A DNA stretch of 64,000 nucleotides. Source: Chitinophagales bacterium (lineage in GTDB: Bacteria > Bacteroidota > Bacteroidia > Chitinophagales > JANQFB01). Below the pieces are notes generated by a model. It was not told the origin of the DNA and searched no databases. It saw nothing but the letters and a program-made list of their open reading frames with translations. Shown in pieces: positions 552-49,379 of the stretch. The DNA lies in NCBI GenBank assembly GCA_028278085.1, contig JANQFB010000055.1, positions 3,806-67,805 on the forward strand, in the 5' to 3' direction. A program made the position numbers and the translations under genes. How positions within the stretch are numbered: position 1 is the first letter of the stretch; each line of letters starts with the position of its first letter.

Positions 552-1523
552 ATGTCCGAATACCTGGAAACAACCAAAGCCGTTTATAAAGATGCAGCCG
601 TGCAGCCAGTACAGGGATTATGCTGTACCACCAATCCCATTTGGCAACTCCCAGGCCTCGAGATCCCCGGGAAAATGCTGGAAATGAATTACGGATGCGG
701 CACTACAGTCCATCCCCGTGACCTCGTGAATGATCCGGCGGTGTTATATGTAGGTGTCGGCGGAGGTATGGAGCTTTTGCAGTTCTCATATTTCAGCAGA
801 CGGAAAGGAGCCATCATCGGTATTGATGCCGTTCCGGAAATGCTAGCGGTTTGTTACCGGAATTTCGAGGAAGCGGAAACTTTGAACCCATGGTTCAGCA
901 GTGATTTTGTTCAATTGAAAGCCGGAGATGCCCTTAACCTACCGGTTGACGATGCTTCCATAGATATTGCAGCGCAAAACTGTCTGTTCAATATTTTCAA
1001 ACCCGCCGACCTCACCCAAGCATTAACCGAAATGTACCGGGTACTGAAGCCTCATGGCAAATTGGTATTATCGGACCCTGTGTGTGAGACAGAGATACCG
1101 GAAGCGCTTGGGGAGGATGAAAAGCTACGGGCCTTGTGTTTAAGCGGGTCTATTCCCCTGGACGCCTATGTTAAAAAGATAAGCGATACAGGTTTCGGAA
1201 CGATAGAGGTCCGTGCCAAACGACCCTACAGAATACTCGACCCGGCGCACTATGATACCCCACACTTAATTTATATCGAAAGTGTGGAGATCTGTGCGAT
1301 AAAGGATCCGATGCCTGATGACGGACCCTGCGTATTCACCGGCAAAACGGCCATTTATTATGGTAGCGAGGATTATTTCGACGATGGGAAAGGACATGTG
1401 TTGCTGCAAAATCAACCCCTGTCCGTGTGTGATAAAACAGCCTCGAAACTGGCGGCGCTCGATAGAAATGATATTTTTATTTCGCCTTCCACCTATTTTT
1501 ATGACGGCGGGGGTTGTTGCTAA
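552..1523 (+). CDS. arsM: Arsenite S-adenosylmethionine methyltransferase (ArsM-like)
   Basis: SAM-binding motif I 'VLYVGVGGGMEL', an N-terminal vicinal cysteine pair 'GLCCTT', further conserved Cys residues, and a C-terminal 'GGGCC'. Length 323 aa. Confidence 0.75.
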   Translation: MSEYLETTKAVYKDAAVQPVQGLCCTTNPIWQLPGLEIPGKMLEMNYGCGTTVHPRDLVNDPAVLYVGVGGGMELLQFSYFSRRKGAIIGIDAVPEMLAVCYRNFEEAETLNPWFSSDFVQLKAGDALNLPVDDASIDIAAQNCLFNIFKPADLTQALTEMYRVLKPHGKLVLSDPVCETEIPEALGEDEKLRALCLSGSIPLDAYVKKISDTGFGTIEVRAKRPYRILDPAHYDTPHLIYIESVEICAIKDPMPDDGPCVFTGKTAIYYGSEDYFDDGKGHVLLQNQPLSVCDKTASKLAALDRNDIFISPSTYFYDGGGCC

Positions 1524-4305: not shown

Positions 4306-4530
4306 AACAATAATTTTAATACCCAAAAAAAGGCACAGGTGCAGATCTGTCAGTTGATCTGCCTCTCTATTAATGTTGCTCGCGGAAAATAACCTGCCAT
4401 AATAAGGCAGGATCGGATAGATCTAAAAAGCTAAAAATTTCCTATACGGGTATAAGAATCTGTCAGCTATTTATACCTAAGTTAATACATTCCTAACGGA
4501 TCTCCAAATAAAATTCATCTTCCGGGTCCT

Positions 4531-6681: not shown

Positions 6682-7040
6682 AAGGCAAATTTTTTAGTTA
6701 ATTAATACAATTAACACTTCATTGCCTGGGGTCACTTGGTTGTTGTTTGTTCTAAAAGCCCGGAGCTATAAGCTCATTTCGCATAATCAGATAGACATTA
6801 CTCAGGCTTTTAAGGTGGGTAGATTATTGATAATGTCTATTAGACTTTAACTAAAATAAGTCATCAGGTAAGCAATTCCAAATAAAAATCACCAATCCCG
6901 GGAAAATGGATGTTTCTACTTATGGAAATACTTAGAACCTCGTAGGCAAAACAACCATACTAAATCCCTAAGAGATTTTCCAAGGATGAAAAAACCTATA
7001 TGATTTGATTAAAATGCGGGAAATAAAGGCGAGAGCGTTG

Positions 7041-9209: not shown

Positions 9210-9298
9210 AATCCAATAGTTTATATATACCTTAAAAATAGCTTATCTAAGGCATTTTAACAAATATTTTTCCGTTTAACGGGGTGTGCCGGAAGGCT

Positions 9299-11461
9299 CT
9301 ATTGCTGGTCGATGATAAGGATCCTTTCCTTGAAAACGATCTTGTCATAATTGCTGGCTAAAACCATATATACACCAGGGTCCAGGCGGTCATTGACATC
9401 AACGGCTAATTTGGCGCCATTGTTTTCATAAACCACTAACTTGGAGAAGACTTCCCGGCCAACGACATCGGCGAGGATGATCAAAACCTCTTCTCCTTCA
9501 ACGGAACTTCCGTCCGGTAAGGCAATATTGAAAGACTCACCGCTCAATACCGGGTTGGGGAATATCTTCACACCATTCGCAGCAGTGATCACATCATTTC
9601 TAACGGTTACAACCTCCGTATAAGCAAAAGATCCGTCAAAATCGGTCTGTTTCAGCCGGTAGTAGGAAACGCCGTAATAAGGCTGGCGATCCAGGTAGGA
9701 ATAATTGGAAAGCGATGAAGTATTCCCGTTTCCATTGACAATAGCGATCTCTTCAAAAGTAAGTCCGTCGGCGCTTCTTTCCACGGAATAGAAATCGTTA
9801 TCGATCTCTGTTGCCGTTACCCAGTTCACCCGGACACCATCCGGATCTTTCAAAGCATTCAACGCTATCAATTCGATCGGCAACGGACCGCCGCCTTCAC
9901 CCAGGGGATTCACAGCGCCGCTCGACGAACCGAAAGTAAAAGGCCCGAAAGTAGAGATAGCGCCATTGGAAGTAACACTACCTGCTGCAGTGGTTCCGGA
10001 GGTGGTGCTTTGTCCGCGGTCTTGCCATTGCGATCCGTCCCAACCGCCCACTTCGATATCACCCATATTGTTGATATCACTTCTCGTTCCGTTCTCCCAG
10101 TACAAGGTTATGGAAACATTGTTACCGGTGGCAATCCGGTTCAAATCCCAATATTCGACCGTGCTGACGTTATTGAGGGCAGCCACCAAAGAGCTGGTAT
10201 TGGAGTAGGAGCCATCATGATATTCCGCTTCGAATATGGCTGCCGTCGAAGCCGGAGCACTGATGCCGATCCTGGCAAACTCGGAGCCATCGCCTACGGG
10301 AAAGGTAAAAATATCATTGCCTTCTTTCCGCATGGGACCGTCCACAAAACTTGAGCTGGAACCATTGGTCGAAGTCGCATCGTCTGAAATCGTCAGCAAG
10401 CTGCTGGCCGAACTGAATACGTTTCCATCCACCAGGCTTAAAGAGTTATCAACCCTGGTATCATCGTTCAACGTAAGGCCGGTGGCGCTTGTATTATTGA
10501 TCACCAGATCGTGGAAGGTTTCTTCGGCGGAACAAGTTAAATTCTGAGGAGCGCTGCCATCAAAAGTGATCTCGGTACCGGCCTCCACGAAAGGATCGCC
10601 GTTAGTACTGATATTGGTCCAGTCACCGGCAACGGAAATATCAAAACCTGCCGCATTCAACTGTGAGGAACCGTCGATCCTTAGGTCTCCGTCGACATTG
10701 GTATTGGCTACGAGCGTTTTGACGCCGCTGGTCTCGAAATACAAATGATGGTAGGTACTTTCCGGCGCTTTGACATTCTGAGCCCCGGCTTCCATATAGG
10801 CCACGGTATTCCCGGCAAAGGAGGCTTCAAGCTTGCCCTTCAGGCCGTTTGCCTGAAAAACATCACTTCCCGAGTTCAGGGTGCCCCGGTTATCAAACAT
10901 ACAATCGACACCTGCAGCTTTTAAATTAGCAGGGCCCAGCTTGATCGTTCCGAAATTGGTAACAACAGGATCAGCTCCACTAAGATTGTCGGCAAGGTTC
11001 ATATCCCCGCCGATCATTTGAATATCCGCAGAGGCCAGGATATCCATATCCCCTAAAATATTGATCGTAGCAATACTGGTGAAAAGTCCCGACCCATCGA
11101 GTGTGGTGGAAGAACCGGGAAAACCGATGGTTACCAAACTTGCTCCGGCCAACTCACCGTTCAGTATAATATTGCCGGTAACCGTGATCAAAAAACCGGA
11201 AGCAGACAATTTACCGCCTGTATTAATGGTTATATCGTCAATTTGTGTAAATGGCAATGCCAAAATTACTTCATCCGTACCCCTGATAACGATGTCATCC
11301 GTCAATGCGGGTACACAAACACAATCCCAGGTAGTTGGATTACTCCAGATGCCCAAGGCTGTATTGGATGTTCTGACCGCGGCAAAACCGGAGATGGTAA
11401 AGGAAATTAATGCAATGAGAATAGCAATTTGCCTTGCAAAACCGAATAGGAAAGTTTTCAT
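9299..11461 (-). CDS. T9SS-secreted surface protein, tandem paralog 4 of 4 (type-A CTD)
   Basis: The ATG at 11461 gives 'MKTFLFGFARQIAILIALISFTISGFA', a good signal peptide. The track ORF extends to 11512. Architecture matches paralogs 1-3. Only 89 nt separate it from paralog 3. Confidence 0.85.
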   Translation of the reverse strand: MKTFLFGFARQIAILIALISFTISGFAAVRTSNTALGIWSNPTTWDCVCVPALTDDIVIRGTDEVILALPFTQIDDITINTGGKLSASGFLITVTGNIILNGELAGASLVTIGFPGSSTTLDGSGLFTSIATINILGDMDILASADIQMIGGDMNLADNLSGADPVVTNFGTIKLGPANLKAAGVDCMFDNRGTLNSGSDVFQANGLKGKLEASFAGNTVAYMEAGAQNVKAPESTYHHLYFETSGVKTLVANTNVDGDLRIDGSSQLNAAGFDISVAGDWTNISTNGDPFVEAGTEITFDGSAPQNLTCSAEETFHDLVINNTSATGLTLNDDTRVDNSLSLVDGNVFSSASSLLTISDDATSTNGSSSSFVDGPMRKEGNDIFTFPVGDGSEFARIGISAPASTAAIFEAEYHDGSYSNTSSLVAALNNVSTVEYWDLNRIATGNNVSITLYWENGTRSDINNMGDIEVGGWDGSQWQDRGQSTTSGTTAAGSVTSNGAISTFGPFTFGSSSGAVNPLGEGGGPLPIELIALNALKDPDGVRVNWVTATEIDNDFYSVERSADGLTFEEIAIVNGNGNTSSLSNYSYLDRQPYYGVSYYRLKQTDFDGSFAYTEVVTVRNDVITAANGVKIFPNPVLSGESFNIALPDGSSVEGEEVLIILADVVGREVFSKLVVYENNGAKLAVDVNDRLDPGVYMVLASNYDKIVFKERILIIDQQ

Positions 11462-12072
11462 TTTTTGGGGTTTAAAGTATAGTTTGTCAAATCGCACTAT
11501 GCAAAATAACAAAATTTTTGATGTATTTGCCTCTTTCCAATCAACATTTTAACGGATATTCGGGGTCGCTTGTTTCAAAATTGTTGATTTTTTTTAACCT
11601 GTTTCGATCCGCTGGAATTTATTAAATTATTTTATGTTGAATACCAACAGTTTATGAAGAAATCTTGACCCTTCCCATATGCCGGAATTCACATGTAAAA
11701 TCGTTAAAATTTAAGGATTTTATCGAGTGTCCGATAGCCTCAAAAACGCCCCTGTTCCTCCCTGGTTTTTGGACTTGGATTGAATTACAAATTATTTATT
11801 ATCAATATTAAATGGATATTCGTAAACTTATATTTCAAAAGCCATTTTTATGATCGGTGTTTTTATCTACGTAAAAACGCTTATGTGTGAAAAAAATAGC
11901 GTAATATTATAAGGTGAATTGAAAAAAGTTATAAATTTAAAATCCTGGGAAATATGTAATTCTTCGCTTGTCCGGAATTGAAAACTGTGTACTGATCCAC
12001 TTAAACATGACTGGCATTCTTTGTTTCACCCCTAATTGATATCCATTTAAGTTAACTGAGCACACCACATAG

Positions 12073-14112
12073 ATGAGATTATCCATTTATTCTTTCCTGG
12101 TAATAACCCTTTTATCGGTACACACAAGCTTCAGCCAGAATAACCCTCCGGTTTTTAACCACGACACGGCATTTACCTTAAAAAATACCCGCCTGGTGAT
12201 CGACGTTCAGGCCAATGATTTCGACCCTGACGGCGACCCAATGAACACGGTTATCCTGGTTCATCCCAAAAATGCCGACCTGCTCGGGGCGACCAATTGT
12301 GCGGTTTCACAAGCCAGAACCCTGGCAGCCGACAGTATCGAATATTACCCCTGCGACGGCTATTGCGGCCCTGACACCATTGGCTACCGGATCTGTGATT
12401 CCCCCGGTGCATTATGCGAAGACACGGCATGGGTCTATATTTTCGTTTGTGCTCACCCGGAAGCCAACCCTGACTCTATTACGACGGATGAGGAGGTTGC
12501 CGTAACGATCGATGTACAAGATAATGACACCGACCTGGACAGCGATTCCTTGATCACCAGCCATATATCCGGCCCCTCAAACGGCAGCTTTGCCCTGATC
12601 GGGGATTCCAGTATTCAATATACACCGGATCCGAATTTCAACGGCCGCGATACGATCTTTTATGAAGTCTGTGACACGGATGGCTTGTGCGATACTTCCC
12701 TGGCGATCTTTATCATCAACCCGGTGCCGGATACACCCATGGCATTGCCCGATACGGTGATCTTGAATGAAGATGCATCTATCGTTATCCAAGTACAGTC
12801 GAATGATTCGGATGCTGACGGTGACCCGCTCACCACTAGCATCGTGATCGATGCCATGCATGGCTCCACGAATATTATCAATGGAGACAGTATCTCCTAC
12901 TCCCCCGACCAGGATTATAACGGTTTGGATACCATCGTTTACCAGGTATGCGACGGCGGGGGTTTATGCGATACGACCATTGTCAGTATAACCGTTAATC
13001 CAATGCCGGACCCACCGGTGGCGGTAAACGATACGGTGCAATTGCCGGAAGATTCAATGATCGTAATCGATGTTCAGATCAATGACAGTGATGCCGATAA
13101 CGATCCCCTGGTTTCCGCTGTATTGATCGATGCTTTGAACGGGCAAACCGCTGTTTTGGACAATGATAGCATCCAATACACCCCGGACCAGGATTACAAT
13201 GGTAACGATACGATCTTCTATACGGTTTGTGACCCGGCGCTGACCTGTGATACGGCTATGATCCTTATTACGGTAACTCCCGTTAATGACAAACCCCTGG
13301 CAGTCGATGATTCGGCCGCTTCTTCTTCCCTGAGTAATGTGGTTATTCCCGTACAGGTCAATGATAGTGATCCGGACCACGATAATTTAACGACATCTGT
13401 GATCACCCAACCGGCGAATGGTACGGCCACCGTGCTGGATAACGACAGCATTGAATTTGAGCCGGACCTGGTATTGTTCACCCATGATACCCTGGTTTAC
13501 CAGGTTTGTGACCCGGGATCGCTTTGCGATACTGCCACCGTATACCTGGTGTATAACCTGGAACCCAACCAACCCCCTGTTGCCGATGACGACAGCACCA
13601 CCACCTTCCTGGAAACAGCCAAACTGGTATTCGTTCTGTCGAATGATACGGACCCGGATGGCGATTCGCTTGAAGTGCTGATCCTCGACGGCCCGTTCAA
13701 CGGTATGGCAGTGGTGGAAAACTCCGGAGGTATAACTTATACGCCGGGGATGGGCTTTTCGGGCTTCGACAGCCTGCAATATGAGATCTGTGATGACGGA
13801 CTTCCGTCTTTATGCGATACGGCCGGCCTGCACATCGAAGTCGTATCAGGTGTTACCATTCCAAGCGGATTTTCTCCCAACGGAGATGACGTCAACGACT
13901 TTTTTATGATCCTCAACCTGGAACATTTCCCCGGCGCCATGCTACACGTGTTCAACCGATGGGGTAGCCAGGTATTTGAAAGTTCCGATTATCAGAATGA
14001 CTGGAACGGAACTAATAAAAACGGTGAAGACCTGCCTGACGGCACTTACTTTTATATACTGCAAATCGATGAAGAAACAACTTCTTCCGGACATATCACC
14101 TTACACCGCTAA
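12073..14112 (+). CDS. Cadherin/Ig-like tandem-repeat adhesin with T9SS type-B sorting domain (gliding motility-associated C-terminal domain)
   Basis: Signal peptide, then six units of about 93 aa, each with 'VQxND(S/T)DxDxDxL ... Y(T/S)PDxxxxGxDT..Y.VCD..(G)LCDT'. The C-terminus reads 'PSGFSPNGDDVNDFFMI...VFNRWGSQVF...WNG...LPDGTYFYIL'. Confidence 0.85.
   Translation: MRLSIYSFLVITLLSVHTSFSQNNPPVFNHDTAFTLKNTRLVIDVQANDFDPDGDPMNTVILVHPKNADLLGATNCAVSQARTLAADSIEYYPCDGYCGPDTIGYRICDSPGALCEDTAWVYIFVCAHPEANPDSITTDEEVAVTIDVQDNDTDLDSDSLITSHISGPSNGSFALIGDSSIQYTPDPNFNGRDTIFYEVCDTDGLCDTSLAIFIINPVPDTPMALPDTVILNEDASIVIQVQSNDSDADGDPLTTSIVIDAMHGSTNIINGDSISYSPDQDYNGLDTIVYQVCDGGGLCDTTIVSITVNPMPDPPVAVNDTVQLPEDSMIVIDVQINDSDADNDPLVSAVLIDALNGQTAVLDNDSIQYTPDQDYNGNDTIFYTVCDPALTCDTAMILITVTPVNDKPLAVDDSAASSSLSNVVIPVQVNDSDPDHDNLTTSVITQPANGTATVLDNDSIEFEPDLVLFTHDTLVYQVCDPGSLCDTATVYLVYNLEPNQPPVADDDSTTTFLETAKLVFVLSNDTDPDGDSLEVLILDGPFNGMAVVENSGGITYTPGMGFSGFDSLQYEICDDGLPSLCDTAGLHIEVVSGVTIPSGFSPNGDDVNDFFMILNLEHFPGAMLHVFNRWGSQVFESSDYQNDWNGTNKNGEDLPDGTYFYILQIDEETTSSGHITLHR
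12150..13850 (+). repeat. Six tandem coding repeats of about 279-309 nt (tandem-95-type Ig-like domains)
   Basis: The 'V(Q/L)xND' motif codons recur at about 12205, 12514, 12793, 13072, 13351 and 13633. Array boundaries are approximate. Confidence 0.7.
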
Positions 14113-14118
14113 CGGCTT

Positions 14119-15042
14119 ATGAAAAAAACGATCTTCATCATAATATTCCCGTTTTTGCTGCTTACGGCACAAGCCCAGCAGGAAGTACTTTTCAGTCAGT
14201 ATATGTTTAACGGCCTGGCCCTGAACCCAGCCTATGCCGGTAGTAATGAAGTGCTCAGCTTTACGGCCCTGTACAGAAAACAATGGGTGGGCCTCGATGG
14301 AGCCCCGGAAACCCAAACGGTCAGTTTTCATACACCCCTGAGGAATGAAAAAATAGGTCTAGGCTTACAGATCTTCCATGATAAGATCGGGATCTTTAAC
14401 CGGAATGGCGCTTACGGCAGCTATGCCTTTCACCTGCCGACCACCAATGGCGCTTTTTCCATCGGATTACAAGGAGGGATAACCTCTTACCAGGCCAGGT
14501 GGGCCGACGAAGTCACCATTTCCCCGGGCGACAACGCATTTGCCAACAACTCCGAGACCATGATCGCCCCTAATGTCGGTTTTGGCCTGTATTACCGGAC
14601 CCAAAAGTATTATGCCGGCGTTTCCATTCCCTACTTATTGGAAAACAACCTGGATTTTAATAACAATGTAACCAATGCCTCCAAAAGGTCACATCAATTC
14701 AGGCATTACTTTTTATCGGGAGGATATGTTATTGCGCTGAAACCCGATATTCAACTGAAACCCGAGATCCTGTTGAAATACGTGCAAAACGCACCCACGC
14801 AACTGGATATCAACCTCACGGCGCTATTTTATAACTCCCTTTGGGTCGGCGGAGGATTCCGGACAGACGGTTCGGTGGTATTGCTCCTGGAGTATCAATT
14901 GAACAAACAATTCAGCTTTGGATATTCATTCGATCTGTTGAGCAATCCGCTCAGAAAGGCCAATAGTGGTTCTCATGAAATTATGGTTCGATACGAATTT
15001 AGTTTTGATAAAAGCAATCTGGCACATCCGCGGTACTTTTAA
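14119..15042 (+). CDS. T9SS membrane protein, PorP/SprF family
   Basis: N-terminal 'AQQEVLFSQYMFNGLALNPAYAGS' and 'YRKQWVGLDGAP' are the PorP/SprF signature. It starts 6 nt after the type-B cargo gene. Confidence 0.85.
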   Translation: MKKTIFIIIFPFLLLTAQAQQEVLFSQYMFNGLALNPAYAGSNEVLSFTALYRKQWVGLDGAPETQTVSFHTPLRNEKIGLGLQIFHDKIGIFNRNGAYGSYAFHLPTTNGAFSIGLQGGITSYQARWADEVTISPGDNAFANNSETMIAPNVGFGLYYRTQKYYAGVSIPYLLENNLDFNNNVTNASKRSHQFRHYFLSGGYVIALKPDIQLKPEILLKYVQNAPTQLDINLTALFYNSLWVGGGFRTDGSVVLLLEYQLNKQFSFGYSFDLLSNPLRKANSGSHEIMVRYEFSFDKSNLAHPRYF

Positions 15043-15064: not shown

Positions 15065-18000
15065 ATGAAGGGAATCTCTACACTTTTACAGGGTCTTAAA
15101 TATTGTCTGGCTTTCCTGCTCTTCATTTCCTTGGCAGGCAAGGTTTTCGGTCAGGATAAAGATATTGCCCTTGGCGAAGCTTATTATGAAAATGTATCCT
15201 ACGCGAAAGCCATCGAACATTTTCTAATGGCCCTGGAAAAGGAAGAAAACCAGGAGGATGCCGAACTGATGGCTAAGCTGGCAGACTGTTACCGGTTAAC
15301 CGGCAATACCAAAGAGGCAGCCTCGTGGTATTTACAATCCGTCGATAGCGGGAAGGTCGCCGCATCGACCTCGCTACACCTGGGACAGGTATTGATGATG
15401 GAAGGGCAATATGAGGAAGCTAAAAAGTGGTTCCTGGAATATGCCAAACAAAGGCCCGGAGATCCCAGGGGTAAGGTCCTGGCCAATTCCTGTTCGAATA
15501 TCGGTCAGTACAAATCCGCTCAACGTAATTACAGCGTCAGCTCTTTGCCTTTATCCTCGGATCTGACGGCCTTTTCCCCGGCCTTTTATGGGGAAGACCT
15601 TGTTTTTGTTACGGAACGGCAGGATTTTGGCATCCGACGGAACAATACCTGGACCGGCGGCGGTATGTTGGATCTCTATGTGATCCGGAAAAATAATAAT
15701 GGGGATTGGCAAGAGCCGAAACTGTTCTCCGCTCGCCTGAAATCCTCGTTAAACGAAGGCCCGGCTACTTTCACCAGGGATGGTAAAACCATATATTTCA
15801 CCCGCAATCATAAAAGCAGCAGCGGCGAAAAGGTTAAAAAACTACAGATCTTAAGCGCCACCCGCAAGGGCGGAGGATGGAGTCAGCCCAAACCCTTGTC
15901 GATCAACAGCAAAGGCTATAATGTCGCTCACCCCAGCATTTCGGCCGACGGACAATTTTTGTATTTTATGTCGGACATGCCGGGCAGCAAAGGCGGATCG
16001 GACATATACGTTAGCCGGAAAAGCGGCGATTCGTGGGGAGCCCCGCAAAATCTAGGGTCGGAGATCAACACCAAAGGTAATGAGGCCTTCCCCTTTATTC
16101 ACCCTGACGGCACCCTGTATTTTTCATCGGATGCCCATGAAGGTATGGGCGGACTGGACATTCACATCGCCAGGAATAATAACGGTAAATGGACGCGCAT
16201 TAAGAATATGGGCTTCCCTGTAAATTCGGCAAAAGACGATTTTGGCATAATTGTTGACAAAGATTATCACAACGGTTATTTCTCTTCTAACAGATCCGAT
16301 GGTACGGATAACCTGTATAAGATCAGGATCCTCCAGAAAGACGATATCATGGCCATTCAGCCTGAAGGACTGGCCATCAGCGGAAAGCTGACCGACGACT
16401 CGGAAAGCGCGGTGGAAGGTATCAACGTTACGCTATTCAACGAGGATAAAACGGCCATTTCTTCCTTAAAAACATTAAAAGACGGTACATTCCGGTTTGA
16501 AATGCTTACCCCTGATCAGCAATATATGATCAAGGTAGATGAACCGGAAGACACGGAATTATATATCGAAATGGATCTATCCGACAACAGCGGTACGTTA
16601 GAAAGCATCGAAAGGACAAAGGTGAAAGACCATTATTTCAAGTTTGAAAAACTGCCGGCTATGCAGGAAATGATCCGGTTGCTGGGCGTGGAAGATACGG
16701 AATTGGAGATCGACGAGGGCAAACTGGGTTTTATCGGGAAAGTAACCGACCAGGATCAACAACCCCAGACCGGTGTTTCGATGATCTTGTATGATGAGAA
16801 CAGGAAAGTGATCAGCCGGACAAAAACCGACGACAAAGGCATCTTCAGATTCGAAAATCTGCCGGCCGACGTCAATTATATGTTCCAGATCGATGACGAA
16901 AACGATGCCGGATTCCTGGTCGACATGTTTATGCAAGATGATAAAGGAGGGCTGCTTAAAATGATCACCAGGAGGAGCAAAGACGGTATGTTCCTTTTCG
17001 AGAACCTGCCGGCCTCATCGGCCTTGCTTTCCATGATGGAAGTGGAAGATACGGAATTGAGCGTCGATGATGGAGAGCTGGCCATTTTTGGTAAGATCGC
17101 CGATGGATCACAGCTACCCCAGGGAGGGGTTTCCTTGTCTTTATATGATGAGAACAGAAAAGTGATCCAGCGAACCCAAACGGATGATAAAGGCATTTTC
17201 AAATTTGAAAACCTGCCTTCCGACAAAAACTACCGGATCAAGATCGATGAAGCCGACGATTCGGGTTTCCTCGTGGATATGTTTATGCGCGATGATCAGG
17301 GTAATACTATAAAACTGATCAAGAGCAAGGATGCCGAGGGTATGTTCGCCTTCGAAAACCTTCCCGCAGCACTTACCGATATGGCTTTAATGGCGGTAGA
17401 AGATACCGATCTGTTTATTGACGAAGGAAATATCGGCCTCAAAGGAATGGTAACCGATCCGTCTAAAAATCCGCAGGAAGGGGTGAACATGGTCTTACTC
17501 GACGAGAACAGGAAAGTGATCAGCCGCACAAAAACCAACGATAAAGGGCAATTCATTTTTGAAAACCTGCCTTCCGATATGAATTATATGATCATGGTCG
17601 ATGAAGAAAATGATGCCGGCTTCCTGGTCGATATGTTCATGGAAGATGATAAAGGCAATACCACCCGCCTGCGGAAGCGCAAGAATGCCGATGGCCTCTA
17701 TATCTTTGAAAACCTCCCGGCAGCCTCCGCTATGTTGAGCATGCTGGGCGTTGAAGACACGGAATTAAAAGCCGATGAAGGTAATTTTGGCATCTTCGGA
17801 AAAGTCGGCGATGAAAATAGCCCCGTCAGGGAAGGTGTAAAAATGGCATTGACCGATGAAAACGGTAATATTATTGCCCGGACAACCACCGATAGCAAAG
17901 GGATCTTTAAATTCGAAAACCTGCCTTCCGACAAAAACTACCGGATCAAGATCGACGAAGCCGATGACCAAGGCTTCCTGGTCGATATGTTTATGGCCGA

Positions 18001-20317
18001 CGACCAGGGGCATACCCGGAAATTGATCACCCAAAGAGGGGCCGATGGATTATTTATGTTTGAAAATCTCCCGGTCCAGCAAGCCGGTATTGCCTTGCTC
18101 GATATTTCAGATACGGAATTGGCCATTGACGAAGGAAATATGGGCATATTCGGTAAGCTTGGCGGTGAAGATCCGGATGCCGGGAAAAATGTCAAAATGA
18201 GCCTCTTGGATGAAATGGGGAATGTTGTCGCTACCACAACCACCGACGAAGACGGGGTTTTTACTTTCGAAAACTTACCCACTAATAAAAATTTCAGGAT
18301 CAGGATAGATGATGCCACGGACGAGGGCTTACTGGTAGATATGTTCATGCAGGATGATAAAGGGAATGCCCGCCGGTTGGCGACGCAAAGAGATGCCGGA
18401 GGATTATACATTTTCGAAAGTCTTCCGTCGGAAAAGTCTTTGCTGGAAATGATGGGGGTTAGGGATACCGATCTCGATATCGAAGAAGGAAATATCGGGC
18501 TCATGGGTAATATCAGCAACCTCGAAAAGCTGCCGAGGGAAGGGATCAGGATCATGCTGCTGGATGAAAACGATAATGTGGTGGCCACGGCCATGACCGA
18601 TGAAAAGGGGAATTTTACCTTTGAAAACCTGCCCGGCGACCTTAATTACCGGATCAAGGTCGATGATGATTCCGATGCCGCATTATTAGCGGAGATCCTG
18701 ATGGCAGATGACAAGGGAAATATCAAACGGCTCGTTAAGCGACAAACAGAAACCGGGCTTTTCGAATTCGAGAATCTGCCGGCCACAAAATCCATGTTGA
18801 GTTTCCTGGGTGTGGAAGATACCGAGCTTAGCATCGATGAAGGGCAAATGGGCTTGATCGGGAAGCTGGAGAATTCGGACAACCTGCCGCGCGAAGGGGT
18901 TAAAATGATGTTGCTGGATGAAAATGACAATGTTATCGGAACAGCCATGACCGATGATCAGGGGATCTTTACATTCGAGAACCTGCCGGCGGATCTCAAT
19001 TACCGGATCAAGATCGATGACGACAGTGATGAAGGAGCCCTGGTCGAAATGTTCATGGAAGATGACCGCGGCAATGTTAAACGTTTGATCAAAAAAGAAG
19101 CAGACCAGGGGCTGTTTGAATTTGAAAACCTGCCGGCCAGCAAGAGCATGATAGGCCTGTTGGGAGTTTCCGATACCGAACTCGATATCGATGCCGGCCA
19201 AATGGGCTTGATCGGAAAGATCGAAGATCCGCAAAACCTGCCGCGGGAAGGTGTCAAAATGATGCTGTTGGACGAAAATGATAATGTTGTCGGAACAGCC
19301 ATGACCGATGACCAGGGGATCTTCAAATTCGAGAACCTTCCCGTCGATCCGAATTACCGAATAAAGATCGCCGATGAGGCGGACCAGGGGCTGTTAATGG
19401 AATTGTTTATGGAAGACGACCAGGGTAAAACCGCCTATGTGGAACAATCCAAAACCGGTAACGGTACCTTCGCCCTGGAAAACCTGCCGACCTCCGGAGG
19501 CGGCCTGAGCGAAGCCGAATTAACGGATACCAAGCTTCAAATGCCGGAAGATGGCGACATGTACGTTTTCGACAATATTTATTATCCGTACGAAAGCAAG
19601 GTTTTTCATGATGATGCGATCAAAACCCTGCAAAAGGTGGTGAAGGTGATGAAAGAAAACCCGGAGTTGCGAATAGAGGTGGCCTCTCATACCGATAGTA
19701 AGGGTGAGGCGGCTTATAACTTAAAACTGTCGAAAAAAAGAACGGAAAGCGTGGCACGCTATCTTGTTCAAAATGGCATTAAACGTAAGCGGGTGATCAG
19801 CAAATGGTTCGGAGAAACCCAGTTGGCCGAAAAAGATATGACTGCCGATGGCAAAGAGATCCTCGAAGCCATGCAAAAAAACAGGCGCACCACCCTGAAA
19901 GCCTTCGACTTCCATAGCGCCTTTTCGGCGGAAGGCGGTAAAAGCGTGGTAAAAAGCGGAAAGCAATGGAAATTTGAGAATATTTATTACGAATTTGAAA
20001 GCAACAGATTTACCCAGTCCGCTAAAGACCAGCTCAGGGATATTGCCGCTACCCTTAAAAACAATCCGGAATTGCGGTTGGAAGTGGCTTCGCATACCGA
20101 CAGCAAAGGACCGGAAGATTATAATCTGAATTTGTCCAAAAAAAGGTCGGAAAATGTTGTCCGCTACCTGGTCAGGCAGGGAGTGAAAAAAAACAGGGTC
20201 GTAACGAAATGGTATGGCGAAAGCCAGCTATTGATAAAAGATATAACCGATAGTGGCCTGGAGATACCGGAAGCTATGAAAAAAAACAGGCGGACGAGCT
20301 TTACAATTTTGCGATAA
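15065..20317 (+). CDS. Giant PorE-like protein: TPR + TolB-like beta-propeller + 9 CRD-like repeats + 2 OmpA C-terminal domains
   Basis: TPR-like helices lie at aa 30-150. PD40-like motifs include 'GPATFTRDGKTIYFTRN', 'ISADGQFLYFMSDMPGSKGGSDIYVS' and 'HPDGTLYFSSDAHEGMGGLDIHIA'. Nine 118-aa units follow. Two OmpA-like domains are present ('ASHTDSKG...LSKKR...NRRT' occurs twice). Confidence 0.85.
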   Translation: MKGISTLLQGLKYCLAFLLFISLAGKVFGQDKDIALGEAYYENVSYAKAIEHFLMALEKEENQEDAELMAKLADCYRLTGNTKEAASWYLQSVDSGKVAASTSLHLGQVLMMEGQYEEAKKWFLEYAKQRPGDPRGKVLANSCSNIGQYKSAQRNYSVSSLPLSSDLTAFSPAFYGEDLVFVTERQDFGIRRNNTWTGGGMLDLYVIRKNNNGDWQEPKLFSARLKSSLNEGPATFTRDGKTIYFTRNHKSSSGEKVKKLQILSATRKGGGWSQPKPLSINSKGYNVAHPSISADGQFLYFMSDMPGSKGGSDIYVSRKSGDSWGAPQNLGSEINTKGNEAFPFIHPDGTLYFSSDAHEGMGGLDIHIARNNNGKWTRIKNMGFPVNSAKDDFGIIVDKDYHNGYFSSNRSDGTDNLYKIRILQKDDIMAIQPEGLAISGKLTDDSESAVEGINVTLFNEDKTAISSLKTLKDGTFRFEMLTPDQQYMIKVDEPEDTELYIEMDLSDNSGTLESIERTKVKDHYFKFEKLPAMQEMIRLLGVEDTELEIDEGKLGFIGKVTDQDQQPQTGVSMILYDENRKVISRTKTDDKGIFRFENLPADVNYMFQIDDENDAGFLVDMFMQDDKGGLLKMITRRSKDGMFLFENLPASSALLSMMEVEDTELSVDDGELAIFGKIADGSQLPQGGVSLSLYDENRKVIQRTQTDDKGIFKFENLPSDKNYRIKIDEADDSGFLVDMFMRDDQGNTIKLIKSKDAEGMFAFENLPAALTDMALMAVEDTDLFIDEGNIGLKGMVTDPSKNPQEGVNMVLLDENRKVISRTKTNDKGQFIFENLPSDMNYMIMVDEENDAGFLVDMFMEDDKGNTTRLRKRKNADGLYIFENLPAASAMLSMLGVEDTELKADEGNFGIFGKVGDENSPVREGVKMALTDENGNIIARTTTDSKGIFKFENLPSDKNYRIKIDEADDQGFLVDMFMADDQGHTRKLITQRGADGLFMFENLPVQQAGIALLDISDTELAIDEGNMGIFGKLGGEDPDAGKNVKMSLLDEMGNVVATTTTDEDGVFTFENLPTNKNFRIRIDDATDEGLLVDMFMQDDKGNARRLATQRDAGGLYIFESLPSEKSLLEMMGVRDTDLDIEEGNIGLMGNISNLEKLPREGIRIMLLDENDNVVATAMTDEKGNFTFENLPGDLNYRIKVDDDSDAALLAEILMADDKGNIKRLVKRQTETGLFEFENLPATKSMLSFLGVEDTELSIDEGQMGLIGKLENSDNLPREGVKMMLLDENDNVIGTAMTDDQGIFTFENLPADLNYRIKIDDDSDEGALVEMFMEDDRGNVKRLIKKEADQGLFEFENLPASKSMIGLLGVSDTELDIDAGQMGLIGKIEDPQNLPREGVKMMLLDENDNVVGTAMTDDQGIFKFENLPVDPNYRIKIADEADQGLLMELFMEDDQGKTAYVEQSKTGNGTFALENLPTSGGGLSEAELTDTKLQMPEDGDMYVFDNIYYPYESKVFHDDAIKTLQKVVKVMKENPELRIEVASHTDSKGEAAYNLKLSKKRTESVARYLVQNGIKRKRVISKWFGETQLAEKDMTADGKEILEAMQKNRRTTLKAFDFHSAFSAEGGKSVVKSGKQWKFENIYYEFESNRFTQSAKDQLRDIAATLKNNPELRLEVASHTDSKGPEDYNLNLSKKRSENVVRYLVRQGVKKNRVVTKWYGESQLLIKDITDSGLEIPEAMKKNRRTSFTILR
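16382..19567 (+). repeat. Nine tandem coding repeats, each exactly 354 nt (118 aa)
   Basis: Units start with Gly codons at 16382, 16736, 17090, 17444, 17798, 18152, 18506, 18860 and 19214, all exactly 354 nt apart. Each unit carries two 'FxFENLP' motifs. Confidence 0.9.
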
Positions 20318-20377: not shown

Positions 20378-20968
20378 TTGCTAAATACATCGTTAACAAA
20401 TATGATATTGAATTTCTTAAAAAGATTTAATGGATTATACAGGTCAGCAGGGCTTGCGGTTTTGTTGATTGCGGGTGGGCTGTTGTGTTCCTTTCATCCC
20501 CAATCTATCGATGAAAAGAATACCAACACCAAGATCAAAGCCATATTCCTGTATAATTTCACTAAATATATCGAGTGGCCGTCCGATTATAAAAGCGGAA
20601 TGTTTAAGATCGGCATACTCGGCAGCACAGATATGATCCAGGAACTAGAGCAAATGGCAAGTAAAAAAAAGGTAGGGGCTCAACAAATTGTTATCTCAAA
20701 ATTCGCTTCTGTTGATGCCATTACCAAATGCCATATGATCTATATACCCCGCGAGAAAAGCGGGACACTGGCGGAAGTGGTCAAAAAAGTCGGTGGCAAC
20801 AGCACATTGATCATTACTGACAAAGAAGGCTCGGCCCGGAAAGGAGCAGCAATTAATTTCGTGGTCGAATCCAACAAACAACGCTTTGAATTAAATGTTT
20901 CCAATGCCTTAAAACACAATCTCAAGGTGAGCTCCAATTTATCCGGACTTGCTATTGTAGTTCAGTAA
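20378..20968 (+). CDS. YfiR-family (DUF4154) periplasmic protein
   Basis: Contains 'IKAIFLYNFTKYIEWPSD' and the C-terminal 'FELNVSNALKHNLKVSSNLSGLAIVV', both typical of DUF4154/YfiR. The track start is a TTG at 20378; the ATG at 20402 is an alternative. Confidence 0.7.
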   Translation: MLNTSLTNMILNFLKRFNGLYRSAGLAVLLIAGGLLCSFHPQSIDEKNTNTKIKAIFLYNFTKYIEWPSDYKSGMFKIGILGSTDMIQELEQMASKKKVGAQQIVISKFASVDAITKCHMIYIPREKSGTLAEVVKKVGGNSTLIITDKEGSARKGAAINFVVESNKQRFELNVSNALKHNLKVSSNLSGLAIVVQ

Positions 20969-20982
20969 AACTGAAAGTTATC

Positions 20983-21870
20983 ATGAAACGAGCACTTATT
21001 CTCATATTTATATCCATCGCAGCATTGGCATCGCATGCACAAAAGGATGTGGTGAATGATGCTATCCGGCATTTGAAGAACAAATCATTGGATAGTGCCA
21101 AACTGCTGATCGACCAGGCAGTAGCACACGAAACCACCAAAGATCTTGCCACGACATGGTATTACCGCGGATTCATTTATAAAGAATTATACAAAGAGCG
21201 GGAAAAAAACGACGCTTCCTCTCAATTTCGGATCACTTCTTTTGAATCTTTCAAACACTCCTGCGAACTGGATGCTACCAATGAATCTTTCGAAAACAAT
21301 AAAAGCAACCTGGATTATTTATCAAGGGTATTCTTCAACGATGCGGTCAAAACACTGAATACCGATCAATACCCGCTTTCACTCAAAAACTTCAAACATT
21401 TTAAAGAAACCTCGAAGATCATAGATCCAAATATCGACCTCACCCAAAAAACCATCGAGTACAAAATAGGTATCGCCACCGTATATATGCAGTTGTATGA
21501 ACAGGATATGGAAAAGAACAAAGGCTTCCTGGAAAAGACCAAGGAATCTTATGAGTTTGTGCTCGACATTGATCCGGATAACATCCGTGCCAATTATAAC
21601 ATGGGTGTGTTGTATTACAACCAGGCGGTGAACATCATCCATTCCCTGGAATACGATACCGATATGATCGCCTTGAGTGAAATTCAAAATGATTGCATCA
21701 AATTATTCAAAGAATCGCTTCCTTTTATGGAACTGGCTCATAAGCTCGATCCTAATAACATAAATACATTAAAGGGTTTATCCGGTATTTACTACAGCCT
21801 GAATGAGATTGACAAATCTAATGAGCTAAAAGCTGCAATAGAGGACCTGAAAAAGAAACAACAGGATTAA
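20983..21870 (+). CDS. Secreted TPR-like repeat protein
   Basis: Signal peptide 'LILIFISIAALASHAQ' followed by helical repeats, e.g. 'ANYNMGVLYYNQA' and 'LKGLSGIYYSLNE'. Confidence 0.55.
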   Translation: MKRALILIFISIAALASHAQKDVVNDAIRHLKNKSLDSAKLLIDQAVAHETTKDLATTWYYRGFIYKELYKEREKNDASSQFRITSFESFKHSCELDATNESFENNKSNLDYLSRVFFNDAVKTLNTDQYPLSLKNFKHFKETSKIIDPNIDLTQKTIEYKIGIATVYMQLYEQDMEKNKGFLEKTKESYEFVLDIDPDNIRANYNMGVLYYNQAVNIIHSLEYDTDMIALSEIQNDCIKLFKESLPFMELAHKLDPNNINTLKGLSGIYYSLNEIDKSNELKAAIEDLKKKQQD

Positions 21871-21924
21871 GGTTTTTTCATAAAATATCCTCTGGCCAGT
21901 AGAAAAGAAGGTTTCATATCAAGG

Positions 21925-24162
21925 ATGAATTTCACTATAGGTAAAAGAATCGGGGCTGGGTTTGCTATTCTCATCATACTCACCAGTGTCGTTTTTACCC
22001 TCACCAATTATACCCTTAATGAAAGTAAAGAAATAAATGATGCCATAACCACCATTTATAACCCTTCTATTACTGCCCTCGAAGACCTTAATATCGTTAT
22101 TGTACGGTCTAAAATGCTTATCAACAATTGGGTTTTCATTCAAAGCGGTGAAGACAACATCTACAAAACCCAACTGCGAAACCTCATAGGGGAGGAGTAC
22201 CCGGCAAAAAAAAAAAGAACGCTTGAGCTATCGGAAAATTGGCCGGAGCACCAGAAACTCCTGATCGATACCATCACTAACCGGATCGAAGAATTGTTCA
22301 GCTTACATGAGGAGATCATGATGCAGTTGAATTCTTTCGAAAGCTATGAAGATGCTATGGTGGTATTCATGATCAATCCCATGATCGAAGAAAACGGGGA
22401 AGTAGATGTCGCCACGAATGAGATCCTCAGCAAGCTCCAGTTCCTCATCAGCCGCCAAAAGGAAGAGAGTACCATGTTCACCACCCAAATGGTGGAATCG
22501 TTCAGTCTCCTCCAGTTAGTGGTACGCGGGTCGGGTATCTTGCTGGCGATCGGGGGTATCATCATTGCCCTGATCACCACACGGAGTATCGTCAACCCGG
22601 TCAATCAACTGAAAACCATTTTGCTGAAACTGGGTAAAGGCTTGTTCCCCCAGGAAAAGATCACCAAACGTTCCGACGAGATCGGCGAAATGTCGGAAGC
22701 GCTGGAAGACCTCGTAGCCGGGTTAAAACGAACCACCCAATTTTCCAACCAGGTCGGGGCCGGAGATTTCGAAGCGGAATTCGAACCCTTGAGCAGGGAA
22801 GATGTGCTTGGTCATGCTTTGTTAAAAATGCGGAATAACCTGAAAGACCTCACCTTCAAGCTCGAGCAGGATAAATTCAAGGTAAAACAGCATTCCATAG
22901 AGCTCAGGCAAAAAAACGATGAACTCGCCAAATTGTCTATTGTGGCCAGTGAAACCGATAATGCGGTAGTGATCGCTACCCCTGAAGGCCAGCTCGAGTG
23001 GGTCAATGCTGCTTTTGAGCGGATGTCAGGATTCACCCTGGATGAATTTATCGAGGAAAAAGGAAACAACATCATCGATACCAGTTCGACCGATAATATC
23101 GAAGCCCTGATCAAGGAAAGCATCGAGACGAAAAAATCAGTGGTTTTCGAGTCACTGAATTCCGCCAAAAACGGCCGGCAATTTTGGGTATCCTCTACCC
23201 TTACCCCGATTTTCGACGATACCAACAATATTAAGAAGCTCGTGATCATCGAGGCGGATATTACGGAACGGAAAACAGCGGAGGAGCTGATCCAGCGGAA
23301 AAATAAGGCTATTAAAGACAGTATCGTATACGCCAAAAGGATCCAGGAAGCTATTTTGCCCACCAAAGAGTTTATCAAGGAGGCGCTGCCCGACTCCTTC
23401 ATTCTTTTTAAGCCCAGGGATATTGTCAGCGGCGACTTTTATTGGTACAGCTCGTTAAAAGGAAAAAGTATTATTGCAGCGGTCGATTGTACCGGACACG
23501 GGGTTCCGGGAGCATTCATGAGCATGATCGGCAACTCCTTGTTGAATGAGATCGTTTATGAAAAAGGCCTGCTCAAACCTTCCGCTATCCTCGACAACAT
23601 GAAAACCGGTATTATCAAATCCCTGAAGCAAAAAGGAGAACGCGGGGAATCGAGGGATGGTATGGATATCGCCATTTGCGCCTTCGATCATAAAACGGGT
23701 ATGCTGGAGTATGCCGGCGCCTATAATCCCTTATATATCATCCGGGCCATCGATCCTGCCAACAAAAAGCCATTCAAAAGAACGGCATCATCGAAGGTAA
23801 TGGAGCCCGCAAAAATTGAAATGGATCCGGAAGCGACAAATGAAGAATTCAATTTGTATGAAATTAAGGCCGACAAACAGCCTATCGGTATCCACTACCG
23901 GAAATCCATCGAGCCTTTTACCAACCACAAAGTACAATTAGTCAAGGGAGATGCTTTTTACATCTTTAGCGATGGTTACCCCGACCAGTTTGGTGGTAAG
24001 CTGAACAAGCGTTTTATTACCAAACGCTTCAAAAAATTGCTCTTATCCATTCAACAGAACTCTATGGAAGAACAGGGAAAGATCCTCGAAAAGCACCACC
24101 TCGAATGGAAAGGGGGATTTGAGCAGAACGATGATATTGTGGTTATCGGGGTCAAATATTGA
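21925..24162 (+). CDS. Membrane sensor protein phosphatase: extracytoplasmic domain-HAMP-coiled coil-PAS-PP2C/SpoIIE
   Basis: Two TM segments flank a loop of about 170 aa. A HAMP-like region follows TM2 ('RSIVNPVNQLK...EIGEMSEALEDL'). A PAS-like region reads 'NAVVIATPEGQLEWVNAAFERMSGF'. SpoIIE motifs are 'SGDFYWYS' and 'VDCTGHGVPGAFMSMIG'. Confidence 0.8.
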   Translation: MNFTIGKRIGAGFAILIILTSVVFTLTNYTLNESKEINDAITTIYNPSITALEDLNIVIVRSKMLINNWVFIQSGEDNIYKTQLRNLIGEEYPAKKKRTLELSENWPEHQKLLIDTITNRIEELFSLHEEIMMQLNSFESYEDAMVVFMINPMIEENGEVDVATNEILSKLQFLISRQKEESTMFTTQMVESFSLLQLVVRGSGILLAIGGIIIALITTRSIVNPVNQLKTILLKLGKGLFPQEKITKRSDEIGEMSEALEDLVAGLKRTTQFSNQVGAGDFEAEFEPLSREDVLGHALLKMRNNLKDLTFKLEQDKFKVKQHSIELRQKNDELAKLSIVASETDNAVVIATPEGQLEWVNAAFERMSGFTLDEFIEEKGNNIIDTSSTDNIEALIKESIETKKSVVFESLNSAKNGRQFWVSSTLTPIFDDTNNIKKLVIIEADITERKTAEELIQRKNKAIKDSIVYAKRIQEAILPTKEFIKEALPDSFILFKPRDIVSGDFYWYSSLKGKSIIAAVDCTGHGVPGAFMSMIGNSLLNEIVYEKGLLKPSAILDNMKTGIIKSLKQKGERGESRDGMDIAICAFDHKTGMLEYAGAYNPLYIIRAIDPANKKPFKRTASSKVMEPAKIEMDPEATNEEFNLYEIKADKQPIGIHYRKSIEPFTNHKVQLVKGDAFYIFSDGYPDQFGGKLNKRFITKRFKKLLLSIQQNSMEEQGKILEKHHLEWKGGFEQNDDIVVIGVKY

Positions 24163-42578: not shown

Positions 42579-42655
42579 CAACAGTTGATAACGACATAAT
42601 TTATTTATATTAGCAATAATTTCAACAACTTCAGTTATTACCATATCAAAAAGTC

Positions 42656-43723: not shown

Positions 43724-43816
43724 AACCCACCACCACAAAAAGCCCATGCGAAATGATGAAGGCCACCGATCTAAATCCTGAAAAATTTAAGAACCTGTCC
43801 CAAAACTAAAATTGGA

Positions 43817-45880: not shown

Positions 45881-45937
45881 ATCATCATAAATACCAGCAA
45901 AAATCTGACTACGATCACCCCATATAAATCATTAGCT

Positions 45938-49348: not shown

Positions 49349-49379
49349 TAAGGCTTTTGGCGGCCTGTTATATATTTCA

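Follow-up and report, generated by a model that had tools for sequence, protein, structure and literature searches.

Within the window, by which we mean the whole 64-kb stretch of DNA analysed, an open reading frame at 15065..20317 (+) runs without interruption for 5.25 kb and encodes a protein of 1750 aa, in whose interior a 118-aa unit recurs nine times. What does such a protein do in the cell envelope, and what does its multiplied interior contribute? [quoted passage not shown] This periplasmic protein of 1750 residues probably connects an adhesin on the cell surface with the wall via nine beta-sandwich modules and two wall-binding domains. It reveals no new kind of system, and is an extreme case in a repeat-expanded family that is common in databases and essentially undescribed in the literature searched. 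The initial annotation, which knew of no such variant of the T9SS component PorE, was thus roughly right about the literature, but databases hold many such proteins.

The genomic setting is part of the evidence for this role. The giant gene is the third in a tight operon, separated by 22 nt from a PorP/SprF gene that itself follows a cargo gene after 6 nt:

12073..14112, + strand: cargo gene; adhesin-like product of 679 aa that carries six Big_9/cadherin-like repeats and a C-terminal sorting domain (CTD) of T9SS type B (Pfam, NCBIfam)
14119..15042, + strand: PorP/SprF-family outer-membrane protein, 307 aa (PF11751, 277 bits; TIGR03519, 286.5 bits against a cutoff of 90.55)
15065..20317, + strand: giant PorE-like gene, 1750 aa (open reading frame, Pfam and NCBIfam profiles)

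The cargo product matches Big_9 (330 bits, 6 stretches) and CHU_C (95 bits) in Pfam, and TIGR04131 in NCBIfam with 64.3 bits against a cutoff of 35. The type-B cargo initially proposed upstream is supported, and the PorP/SprF protein is presumed to be its cognate shuttle and anchor. Operons of cargo, PorP(SprF)-like and PorE-like genes in Flavobacterium johnsoniae (for example Fjoh_3952-3951-3950) follow the same three-gene logic, in that the PorE-like gene adjoins porP/sprF-like and type-B-CTD genes. Five to six such operons occur in that species, and static anchoring of non-motile type-B cargo has been proposed for them (PMC9143113, PMC12618676). In contrast to the giant protein, the F. johnsoniae PorE-like proteins, compared here by description only, are not described in these two sources as having a multi-module array or tandem OmpA domains.

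The same arrangement recurs elsewhere. The order CHU_C protein, PorP_SprF, multi-unit PorE-like protein was found at six of six homologue loci examined (within L001-L007), and the window itself contains a second T9SS anchor cluster:

40617..50432, + strand: second T9SS anchor cluster (Pfam, NCBIfam), comprising the next five features
40617..42578, + strand: type-B cargo
42656..43723, + strand: PorP/SprF
43817..45880, + strand: lipoprotein PorE-like, 687 aa (LFGC lipobox by inspection)
45938..49348, + strand: type-B cargo
49380..50432, + strand: PorP/SprF

The PorE-like protein of this second cluster had been read as having the same domain order with one unit related to the carboxypeptidase-regulatory-like domain (CRD) and one OmpA domain. 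Its TPR, PD40 and OmpA regions were recovered, but its single CRD, with 17.7 bits (E = 0.0045), stayed under the cutoff of Pfam.

Profile searches place the giant protein close to PorE, with the following features along its length:

15065..15151, + strand: signal peptide, aa 1-29, presumed SPI cleavage between VFG and QDKD (sequence inspection)
15167..15505, + strand: TPR region, approximately aa 35-147 (Pfam TPR_16, TPR_12, TPR_2, TPR_19)
15542..16354, + strand: PD40/TolB-like beta-propeller region, approximately aa 160-430 (PF07676, 63.9 bits, 2 stretches)
16382..19567, + strand: array of nine 354-nt (118-aa) units (repeat finder, translation, profiles, model)
19568..19924, + strand: first OmpA domain (PF00691; motif SHTDSKG..YNL.LSKKR conserved)
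19973..20314, + strand: second OmpA domain (PF00691; best PDB match 6TOP, E = 2.2e-16)

This is the layout given in the initial annotation (TPR, PD40-like propeller, nine units, two OmpA_C domains), and the four profile types that it named for checking, CarboxypepD_reg, PD40, OmpA and TPR, were all matched. The order of TPR, PD40, CarboxypepD_reg (nine) and OmpA (two) in Pfam is that of PorE, and PDB consensus-TPR matches cover aa 35-147. The T9SS_PorE profile (NF052230) scores 474.4 bits (E = 5.1e-142), aligning aa 19-489 with profile positions 7-474 of 648, and the best NCBIfam match, the CHU_0125 family OmpA-like outer membrane integrity protein (NF053607), scores 481.5 bits; together the two profiles align over aa 20-490. 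The initial PorE-like assignment is supported, with the N-terminal 470 aa matching both profiles at E ~1e-142. Formal membership in either family does not follow, because both full-length scores lie below the curated NCBIfam cutoffs (474 against 600 for PorE, 481 against 620 for CHU_0125).

PorE of Porphyromonas gingivalis (PG1058) shares with the giant protein the TPR, beta-propeller, CRD-type sandwich and OmpA_C domains and the linkage to PorP-family and type-B cargo genes. It is a lipoprotein of approximately 670 aa with one sandwich and one OmpA domain, whereas the giant protein has nine and two, respectively, and 1750 aa. Inspection of the N-terminus, MKGISTLLQGLKYCLAFLLFISLAGKVFG followed by QDKD, for a lipobox found none, and the cysteine expected of PorE as an outer-membrane lipoprotein is thus not seen; the giant protein is therefore not taken to be a lipoprotein. 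At the aligned position the second PorE-like protein of the window has its LFGC lipobox, and the signal ends in '..AQ' without a lipobox in nearly all multi-unit homologues. We conclude that the giant protein is probably a cargo-specific PorE paralogue, not a core secretion component.

The C-terminal domains point to the cell wall. OmpA (PF00691) matches two stretches with 135.5 bits, above the gathering score, and the duplication seen initially was confirmed, with 'ASHTDSKG' and 'NRRT' each occurring twice. The closest solved relative of both domains is the C-terminal domain of P. gingivalis PorE (PDB 6TOP). Its alignment with an OmpA domain pairs SHADRKGPDAYNLGLSDRR with SHTDSKGPEDYNLNLSKKR and conserves the HxD, YNL and R residues, and by alignment the peptidoglycan-contacting motif is present in both copies.

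Between propeller and OmpA domains lies the array, which we defined with a seed-based repeat finder and direct translation. Unit starts fall at 16382 + 354n with the translation in register, and what is measured, the eight intervals from one start to the next, is exactly 354 nt each time. Tandem Repeats Finder returned nothing at period 354 because the units are too diverged, sharing 27-68% amino-acid and 43-68% nucleotide identity. The early reading that no unit contains an indel stands as far as these eight intervals go, but in the tail of unit 9 both MAFFT and pairwise alignments prefer what is probably a 1-aa insertion. The spacing of the FxFENLP-coding motif alternates between 147 and 207 nt, and in unit 1 both copies are degenerate (FRFEMLT, FKFEKLP). 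The half-unit duplication proposed to explain the two motifs is supported by hhalign, which aligns unit positions 14-47 with 62-96 (probability 95%, E = 1.8e-8).

Each unit appears to be a beta-sandwich. Over the whole protein, CarboxypepD_reg matches nine stretches with 236 bits and SdrD_B (PF17210) nine stretches with 214.6 bits, in agreement with the nine-fold amplification of a CRD-type segment that was first suggested. A single unit falls just below the cutoff of CarboxypepD_reg (PF13620; 31.6 against 32.3 bits, profile columns 4-54 of 82 only) and passes that of SdrD_B (34.2 against 29.7 bits, columns 24-68 of 112 only), and in both cases the match is confined to the first ~55 residues, which are generic. 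The best PDB sequence match of a unit is an SdrD B domain (10ps, E = 7.6e-8), and the top Foldseek matches of the modelled unit are SdrD B, CnaB/SpyCatcher, pilin shafts and TIE. An AF2 model of two units (pTM 0.42) assigns pLDDT values of 80-94 to the sandwich and ~40 to the linker; the unit is thus modelled as a confidently predicted CnaB/SdrD-B/CRD-type beta-sandwich of ~90 aa with a low-confidence linker of ~23 aa. The Staphylococcus aureus SdrD B repeats and the CnaB-type stalk domains of Gram-positive adhesins and pilins are likewise tandem prealbumin-like beta-sandwiches of ~110-118 aa, but they belong to extracellular, sortase-anchored proteins, whereas the array is periplasmic in a diderm, and the similarity to them is limited to the first half of the unit. 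Specific to the PorE-like family are the second half, in which an FxFENLP hairpin is repeated, and the D-T-x-L linker. Lys at unit position 2, considered for CnaB-type isopeptide bonds, is not invariant.

The units of the array are old, and their sequence carries constraint of its own. Among unit pairs, pN is 0.21-0.50 and pS 0.67-0.90, so that synonymous sites are saturated; we used pN and pS directly, since saturation of dS makes dN/dS ratios unreliable. Across the nine units 19 alignment columns are invariant, including D-T-x-L, and with pN far below pS this indicates that the unit sequence itself is conserved. Judged from sequence comparison, the units are old and under purifying selection. 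All nine are closer to one another (42-68%) than to any homologue unit (at most 47%), and the expansion is thus lineage-specific; among the arrays compared, this one is the second least diverged (mean 49%). It probably arose by lineage-specific tandem duplication of an ancestral 118-aa unit already containing the half-duplication; purifying selection has accompanied the later divergence of the copies, and units 1-8 have gained no indels. The longest exact run common to any two units is the following pair:

17207..17247, + strand: 41-nt run in unit 3, identical to 17915..17955 in unit 5
17915..17955, + strand: unit-5 partner of the 41-nt run, from pairwise unit comparison

This run, which includes the 38-nt string at 17210 and 17918 noted at the outset as near-identical DNA in units 3 and 5, is likely a micro gene-conversion tract. 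A shared stretch of 41 nt is not long enough for an assembler to lose or multiply units, and the array is therefore not an assembly artefact, a concern raised in the initial annotation. With units at most 68% identical in nucleotides, the frame uninterrupted and pN far below pS, we attach practically no probability to an artefact or a decaying pseudogene. NCBI-derived data contain an identical 1750-aa protein, encoded on a contig of 70.8 kb.

Work on PorE gives a basis for assigning roles to the parts. The PorE-PorP-PG1035 complex bridges peptidoglycan and the outer membrane (PMC9143113, PMC12618676), and within PorE the WD40 domain has been implicated in the binding of PorP; the protein requires its OmpA domain and the residues there that bind peptidoglycan, but can do without the CRD (PMC12773672). 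By analogy, the head of the giant protein would bind the cognate PorP-like barrel from the periplasmic side, and the barrel in turn would hold the secreted adhesin on the surface, and the tandem OmpA domains may grip peptidoglycan non-covalently, with an avidity above that of a single domain. The nine-module acidic array would form a long tether between these ends, acting as a leash and load-bearing connector and not as a strut of fixed length. Domain sizes in general put the extended array at an estimated ~35 nm or more, which exceeds the gap between outer membrane and peptidoglycan; it would therefore have to run alongside the wall or fold back in part.

The initial annotation had favoured selection on the physical length of the array rather than on its sequence, with a spacer, ruler or extended stalk in mind; in a ruler or strut, units fixed at 118 aa would set the distance from peptidoglycan to PorP precisely. 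The eight exact 354-nt intervals, retained despite saturated synonymous sites, are consistent with such a ruler, as is the share of gap-free unit pairs in homologous arrays, which at 40-60% identity is no higher than 38-63%; for the absence of any indel from the whole unit tree a rough estimate gives p ~0.03-0.1, uncorrected for the choice of this array. We nevertheless regard a ruler as unlikely. Purifying selection on sequence, with its 19 invariant columns and pN far below pS, runs counter to the proposal, and the dozens of homologues have arrays of 3-10 units with unit lengths of 91-130 aa, some alternating between 116 and 97 or 114 and 130, so that neither unit nor total length is conserved. 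Free variation in unit length among orthologues had been named at the outset as evidence against length selection; it is found here in relatives that are distant (at most 33% identity) and not orthologues. The whole-protein search of genome contigs gave no confirmed relative, and the homologues found include no orthologue above 33% identity. The gap-free share of 38-63% at similar divergence also tells against a ruler, since many unit pairs elsewhere lack gaps too and this array is the second least diverged of those compared. Exact periodicity is shared with another array, P0219 (107 aa, four intervals), while the probable insertion in unit 9 and the low confidence of the modelled linkers fit poorly with a rigid measure. 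Nine sandwiches in series would also be wider than the periplasm. Finally, the single CRD of PorE can be dispensed with (PMC12773672).

The composition of the array raises another reading, namely that nine acidic modules bind a ligand multivalently: Ca2+, giving an SdrD-B-like rod that is stiffened and mechanically stable, or glycan strands, or intermediates of cargo in the periplasm. D/E residues make up 20.7% of the array, which has a net charge of -112 and no Cys or Trp, its units conserve the acidic motifs LlDEN, TDdkG, MFM.DD.Gn and VEDTEL.IDEG, and among 39 di-units drawn from diverse homologues 90% or more keep the linker residue D105; the SdrD_B score of a single unit and its closest PDB relative point the same way. 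On the other side, the units leave the N-terminal part of the SdrD_B profile unmatched, presumably where the Ca2+ loops are located, and PorE does not need its CRD (PMC12773672), and we rate ligand binding as rather improbable. A general envelope tether, that is, a CHU_0125/Pal-like linker of outer membrane and peptidoglycan that serves integrity with no specific cargo role, seems very unlikely. CHU_0125 of Cytophaga hutchinsonii is a periplasmic Bacteroidota protein of the same TPR/propeller/OmpA type and its family gives the best NCBIfam match, and when chu_0125 is deleted, cellulose degradation that depends on the outer membrane is affected (PMC5891637). Yet that score is below the cutoff, the cargo-PorP-PorE-like order holds at all six homologue loci and in the second cluster of the window, and the giant protein has no lipid anchor with which to reach the outer membrane independently of PorP. 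The published description of CHU_0125 is moreover that of a Pal-like lipoprotein with an effect on outer-membrane function (PMC5891637) and not of a multi-repeat protein such as the giant one.

Besides the sub-cutoff profile scores and the absence of the lipoprotein anchor of canonical PorE, one further point counts against the preferred reading of a peptidoglycan-anchoring subunit for type-B cargo: the conserved acidic motifs and the invariant D-T-x-L linker suggest that the array does more than tether passively. We put forward, as a speculation that is on present grounds doubtful, that non-lipidated multi-module PorE-like proteins form a distinct functional class: long acidic periplasmic leashes, possibly Ca2+-stiffened or extensible, that would be held to the outer membrane only via a PorP-like barrel and to the wall via one or two OmpA domains. 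Lineage-specific duplication would tune the number of modules, and this number would then set the lateral range of a surface adhesin or fibre, or its mechanical compliance under load. If true, this class would be to the periplasm what the B-repeat stalks are to Gram-positive adhesins.

It is PorE-like proteins that have been proposed to link type-B T9SS cargo to the cell wall, and of the PorE domains the CRD is understood least. In the large syntenic subfamily identified here, the single CRD is replaced by 3-10 SdrD-B/CnaB-like modules and the lipid anchor is absent. The subfamily thus offers a natural length series for relating tether length to adhesin mobility, load bearing and spacing, and for addressing the role of the CRD. 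Additionally, some of its members duplicate the OmpA domain.

The initial annotation described a giant PorE-like protein with a nine-fold repeat, and we found that the ORF indeed codes for 1750 aa and that cutting at 16382 + 354n yields nine in-frame units of 118 aa. The gene is the third of a tight operon (gaps of 6 and 22 nt), and the window holds a second T9SS anchor cluster.

Main features of the operons and the repeat array
12073..14112, + strand: first operon gene, a 679-aa protein with six Big_9/cadherin-like repeats and a type-B C-terminal sorting domain (CTD)
14119..15042, + strand: second operon gene, a PorP/SprF-family protein
15065..20317, + strand: third operon gene, the giant PorE-like gene
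17207..17247 (unit 3) and 17915..17955 (unit 5): 41-nt identical run, the longest exact run of any unit pair
40617..50432, + strand: second T9SS anchor cluster, in the order cargo-B, PorP, PorE-like, cargo-B, PorP

Pfam profiles detect TPR and PD40 in the giant protein, nine stretches each of CarboxypepD_reg (236 bits) and SdrD_B (215 bits), and two OmpA domains (135 bits). Residues 20-490 align to the NCBIfam models PorE (474 bits, E = 5e-142; curated full-length cutoff 600) and CHU_0125 (481 bits; curated full-length cutoff 620). The proposed PorE kinship is thus borne out as clear homology and, because both scores lie under the curated cutoffs, the protein is on profile evidence a formal member of neither family. 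The closest solved relative of the OmpA domains is the C-terminal domain of Porphyromonas gingivalis PorE (6TOP, E = 2e-16), and both copies keep the SHTDSKG..YNL.LSKKR motif, which in the alignment falls on the segment where PorE contacts peptidoglycan. The N-terminus reads as an SPI-type signal (..VFG|QDKD) without a lipobox; the second PorE-like protein in the window carries an LFGC lipobox at the corresponding place, and nearly all multi-unit homologues carry SPI-type '..AQ' signals. The array is strongly acidic (20.7% D/E, net charge -112) with neither Cys nor Trp, and the OmpA region is basic (net charge +14).

Flavobacterium johnsoniae has five to six cargo / PorP-like / PorE-like operons, whose PorE-likes have been proposed as static wall anchors of non-motile type-B cargo via PorP-like proteins (PMC9143113, PMC12618676). 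The operon described here shares that three-gene arrangement, as do all six homologue loci located on contigs, each with the order CHU_C protein, PorP_SprF, multi-unit PorE-like. Architecture, conservation of the binding motif, synteny and unit fold suggest that the giant protein is probably the wall-anchoring subunit of a static type-B cargo anchor. Its head would bind the cognate PorP-like barrel, which would hold the adhesin, the two OmpA domains would bind peptidoglycan, and the nine-module acidic array would serve as a long leash or load-bearing connector lying along the wall. In the second cluster, a PorP/SprF gene follows each of two type-B cargo genes (653 and 1136 aa), and the two pairs flank a single lipoprotein-type PorE-like gene (687 aa), which thus may serve both. 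In each of the six homologue loci, PorP is preceded by a small type-B-CTD protein, of 237-254 aa except in L003, where the 69-aa call looks like a fragment. Fibre-like genes precede the type-B-CTD gene in some loci (PTL_trimer proteins in L005, a Peptidase_S74 protein in L004), a hint that what these complexes anchor may be surface fibres of several subunits.

An AlphaFold2 model of units 3-4 (alignment of 39 rows) predicts a confident beta-sandwich over roughly the first 90 residues of each unit (pLDDT 80-94), followed by a linker of ~23 residues with a short helix at low confidence (pLDDT about 40); with a pTM of 0.42, the relative orientation of the modules is undefined. Foldseek matches in the PDB include SdrD A-B domains, the BcpA and SpaA pilin shafts, the Bacillus anthracis TIE protein and SpyCatcher/CnaB2, and the best solved relative by sequence is the SdrD B domain (E = 7.6e-8, nine-unit profile). 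A single unit scores above the SdrD_B cutoff and just under that of CarboxypepD_reg, both profiles matching only its first ~55 residues. The suggested half-unit duplication is supported by an alignment of positions 14-47 to 62-96 (hhalign, E = 1.8e-8, probability 95%). All nine units agree in nineteen columns, among them the D-T-x-L of the linker, and no fewer than 90% of di-units drawn from diverse homologues keep the Asp of this motif.

A repeat finder recovers families with copies spaced exactly 354 nt apart, and a short FxFENLP-coding motif whose spacing alternates between 147 and 207 nt. Tandem Repeats Finder reports nothing at a 354-nt period in the giant gene, indicating that the units are highly diverged; among themselves they share 27-68% amino-acid and 43-68% nucleotide identity, and the motifs of unit 1 are degenerate. 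The exact register, measured over only eight start-to-start intervals, had been taken to mean that no unit contains an indel. This holds for units 1-8; in the tail of unit 9 (19490..19567), which joins the first OmpA domain, the linker diverges (..SGGGLSEAELTDTKLQMPEDGDMYV) and MAFFT and pairwise alignment favour a 1-aa insertion. The DNA string noted as shared by units 3 and 5 is real and lies within the 41-nt run, which probably represents a small gene-conversion tract, since synonymous differences elsewhere are saturated. An assembly artefact was rejected and has a negligible probability: units that share no more than 68% of their nucleotides, and runs of 41 nt, could be neither collapsed nor inflated by an assembler, and the reading frame runs unbroken for 5.25 kb.

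Saturated synonymous differences between units (proportion 0.67-0.90), against non-synonymous proportions of 0.21-0.50, point to old units under purifying selection, constraint on the linker falling just short of that on the sandwich (pN 0.38 vs 0.30). Every unit is nearer to units of its own protein (42-68%) than to any homologue unit (at most 47%), a pattern indicating that the array expanded, or was homogenised, within its own lineage from a 118-aa ancestor. Scanning 1.84 billion representative proteins in full, we found 3004 that match the unit profile at E <= 1e-10. The complete unit is confined to proteins of ~600-1800 aa, most ending in OmpA, with up to ~10 units, and in giant proteins of 2000-7800 aa the match is limited to its generic first half. 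Dozens of the best 120 database matches carry 3-9 units at spacings of 91-130 aa, and two OmpA domains occur in 14 of 119 homologues. Among four library homologues (P0148, P0131, P0144 and P0219), unit lengths strictly alternate in some arrays (116/97 five times, 114/130 three times), which implies that blocks of two units were duplicated; in P0219, four intervals measure exactly 107 aa.

The initial annotation read the constant length as selection on the physical length of the array rather than on its sequence. Unit pairs of other arrays align without gaps in 38% of cases at 40-50% identity and in 63% at 50-60%; within-array identity here averages 49%, the second-highest among the arrays compared. 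From these rates we infer a chance of zero indels over the nine-unit tree of roughly 0.03-0.1, uncorrected for the array having been picked, so that the exact register lies in the tail of the distribution for this family, not beyond it. That position favours a length ruler, but unit length and number both vary in relatives and the sequence is clearly constrained, and taken together the results do not support the claim. Nine ~4-nm sandwiches with linkers would span about 35 nm or more, which exceeds the distance from outer membrane to peptidoglycan, and probably the whole periplasm, making a perpendicular strut impossible. Additionally, the carboxypeptidase-regulatory-like domain (CRD) of P. 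gingivalis PorE is dispensable (PMC12773672), and we consider a ruler distinctly improbable. It is unlikely, if slightly less so, that the array is a functional multivalent or Ca2+-binding rod, and very unlikely that the protein is a general CHU_0125-like envelope tether.

A PorE-like gene in a cargo-PorP-PorE-like operon is a known kind of system, and multi-unit PorE-likes are common in databases. A non-lipidated form with expanded repeats and tandem OmpA domains, as here, appears undescribed; we found no treatment of multi-unit PorE-like arrays in a literature of which our coverage was incomplete. Such proteins offer a natural length series for testing what role the CRD plays and whether the length of the tether makes a difference.

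Immediately after the giant gene, 20378..24162 (+) encodes a YfiR/HmsC-like DUF4154 protein, a TPR protein and a HAMP-PAS-SpoIIE phosphatase, and a SiaA-like phosphatase gene lies further on (35693..37201, -); together these could be a module for biofilm or surface regulation beside the adhesin operon. Four tandem paralogous genes at 2167..11512 (-) encode proteins of 716-737 aa with 45-66% mutual identity and a conserved C-terminal tail; one has a weak type-A T9SS CTD match, and no other Pfam family was detected in the two scanned. The gene at 552..1523 (+) exceeds the NCBIfam cutoff for the arsenosugar-biosynthesis arsenite methyltransferase ArsM (545.6 bits, cutoff 400).
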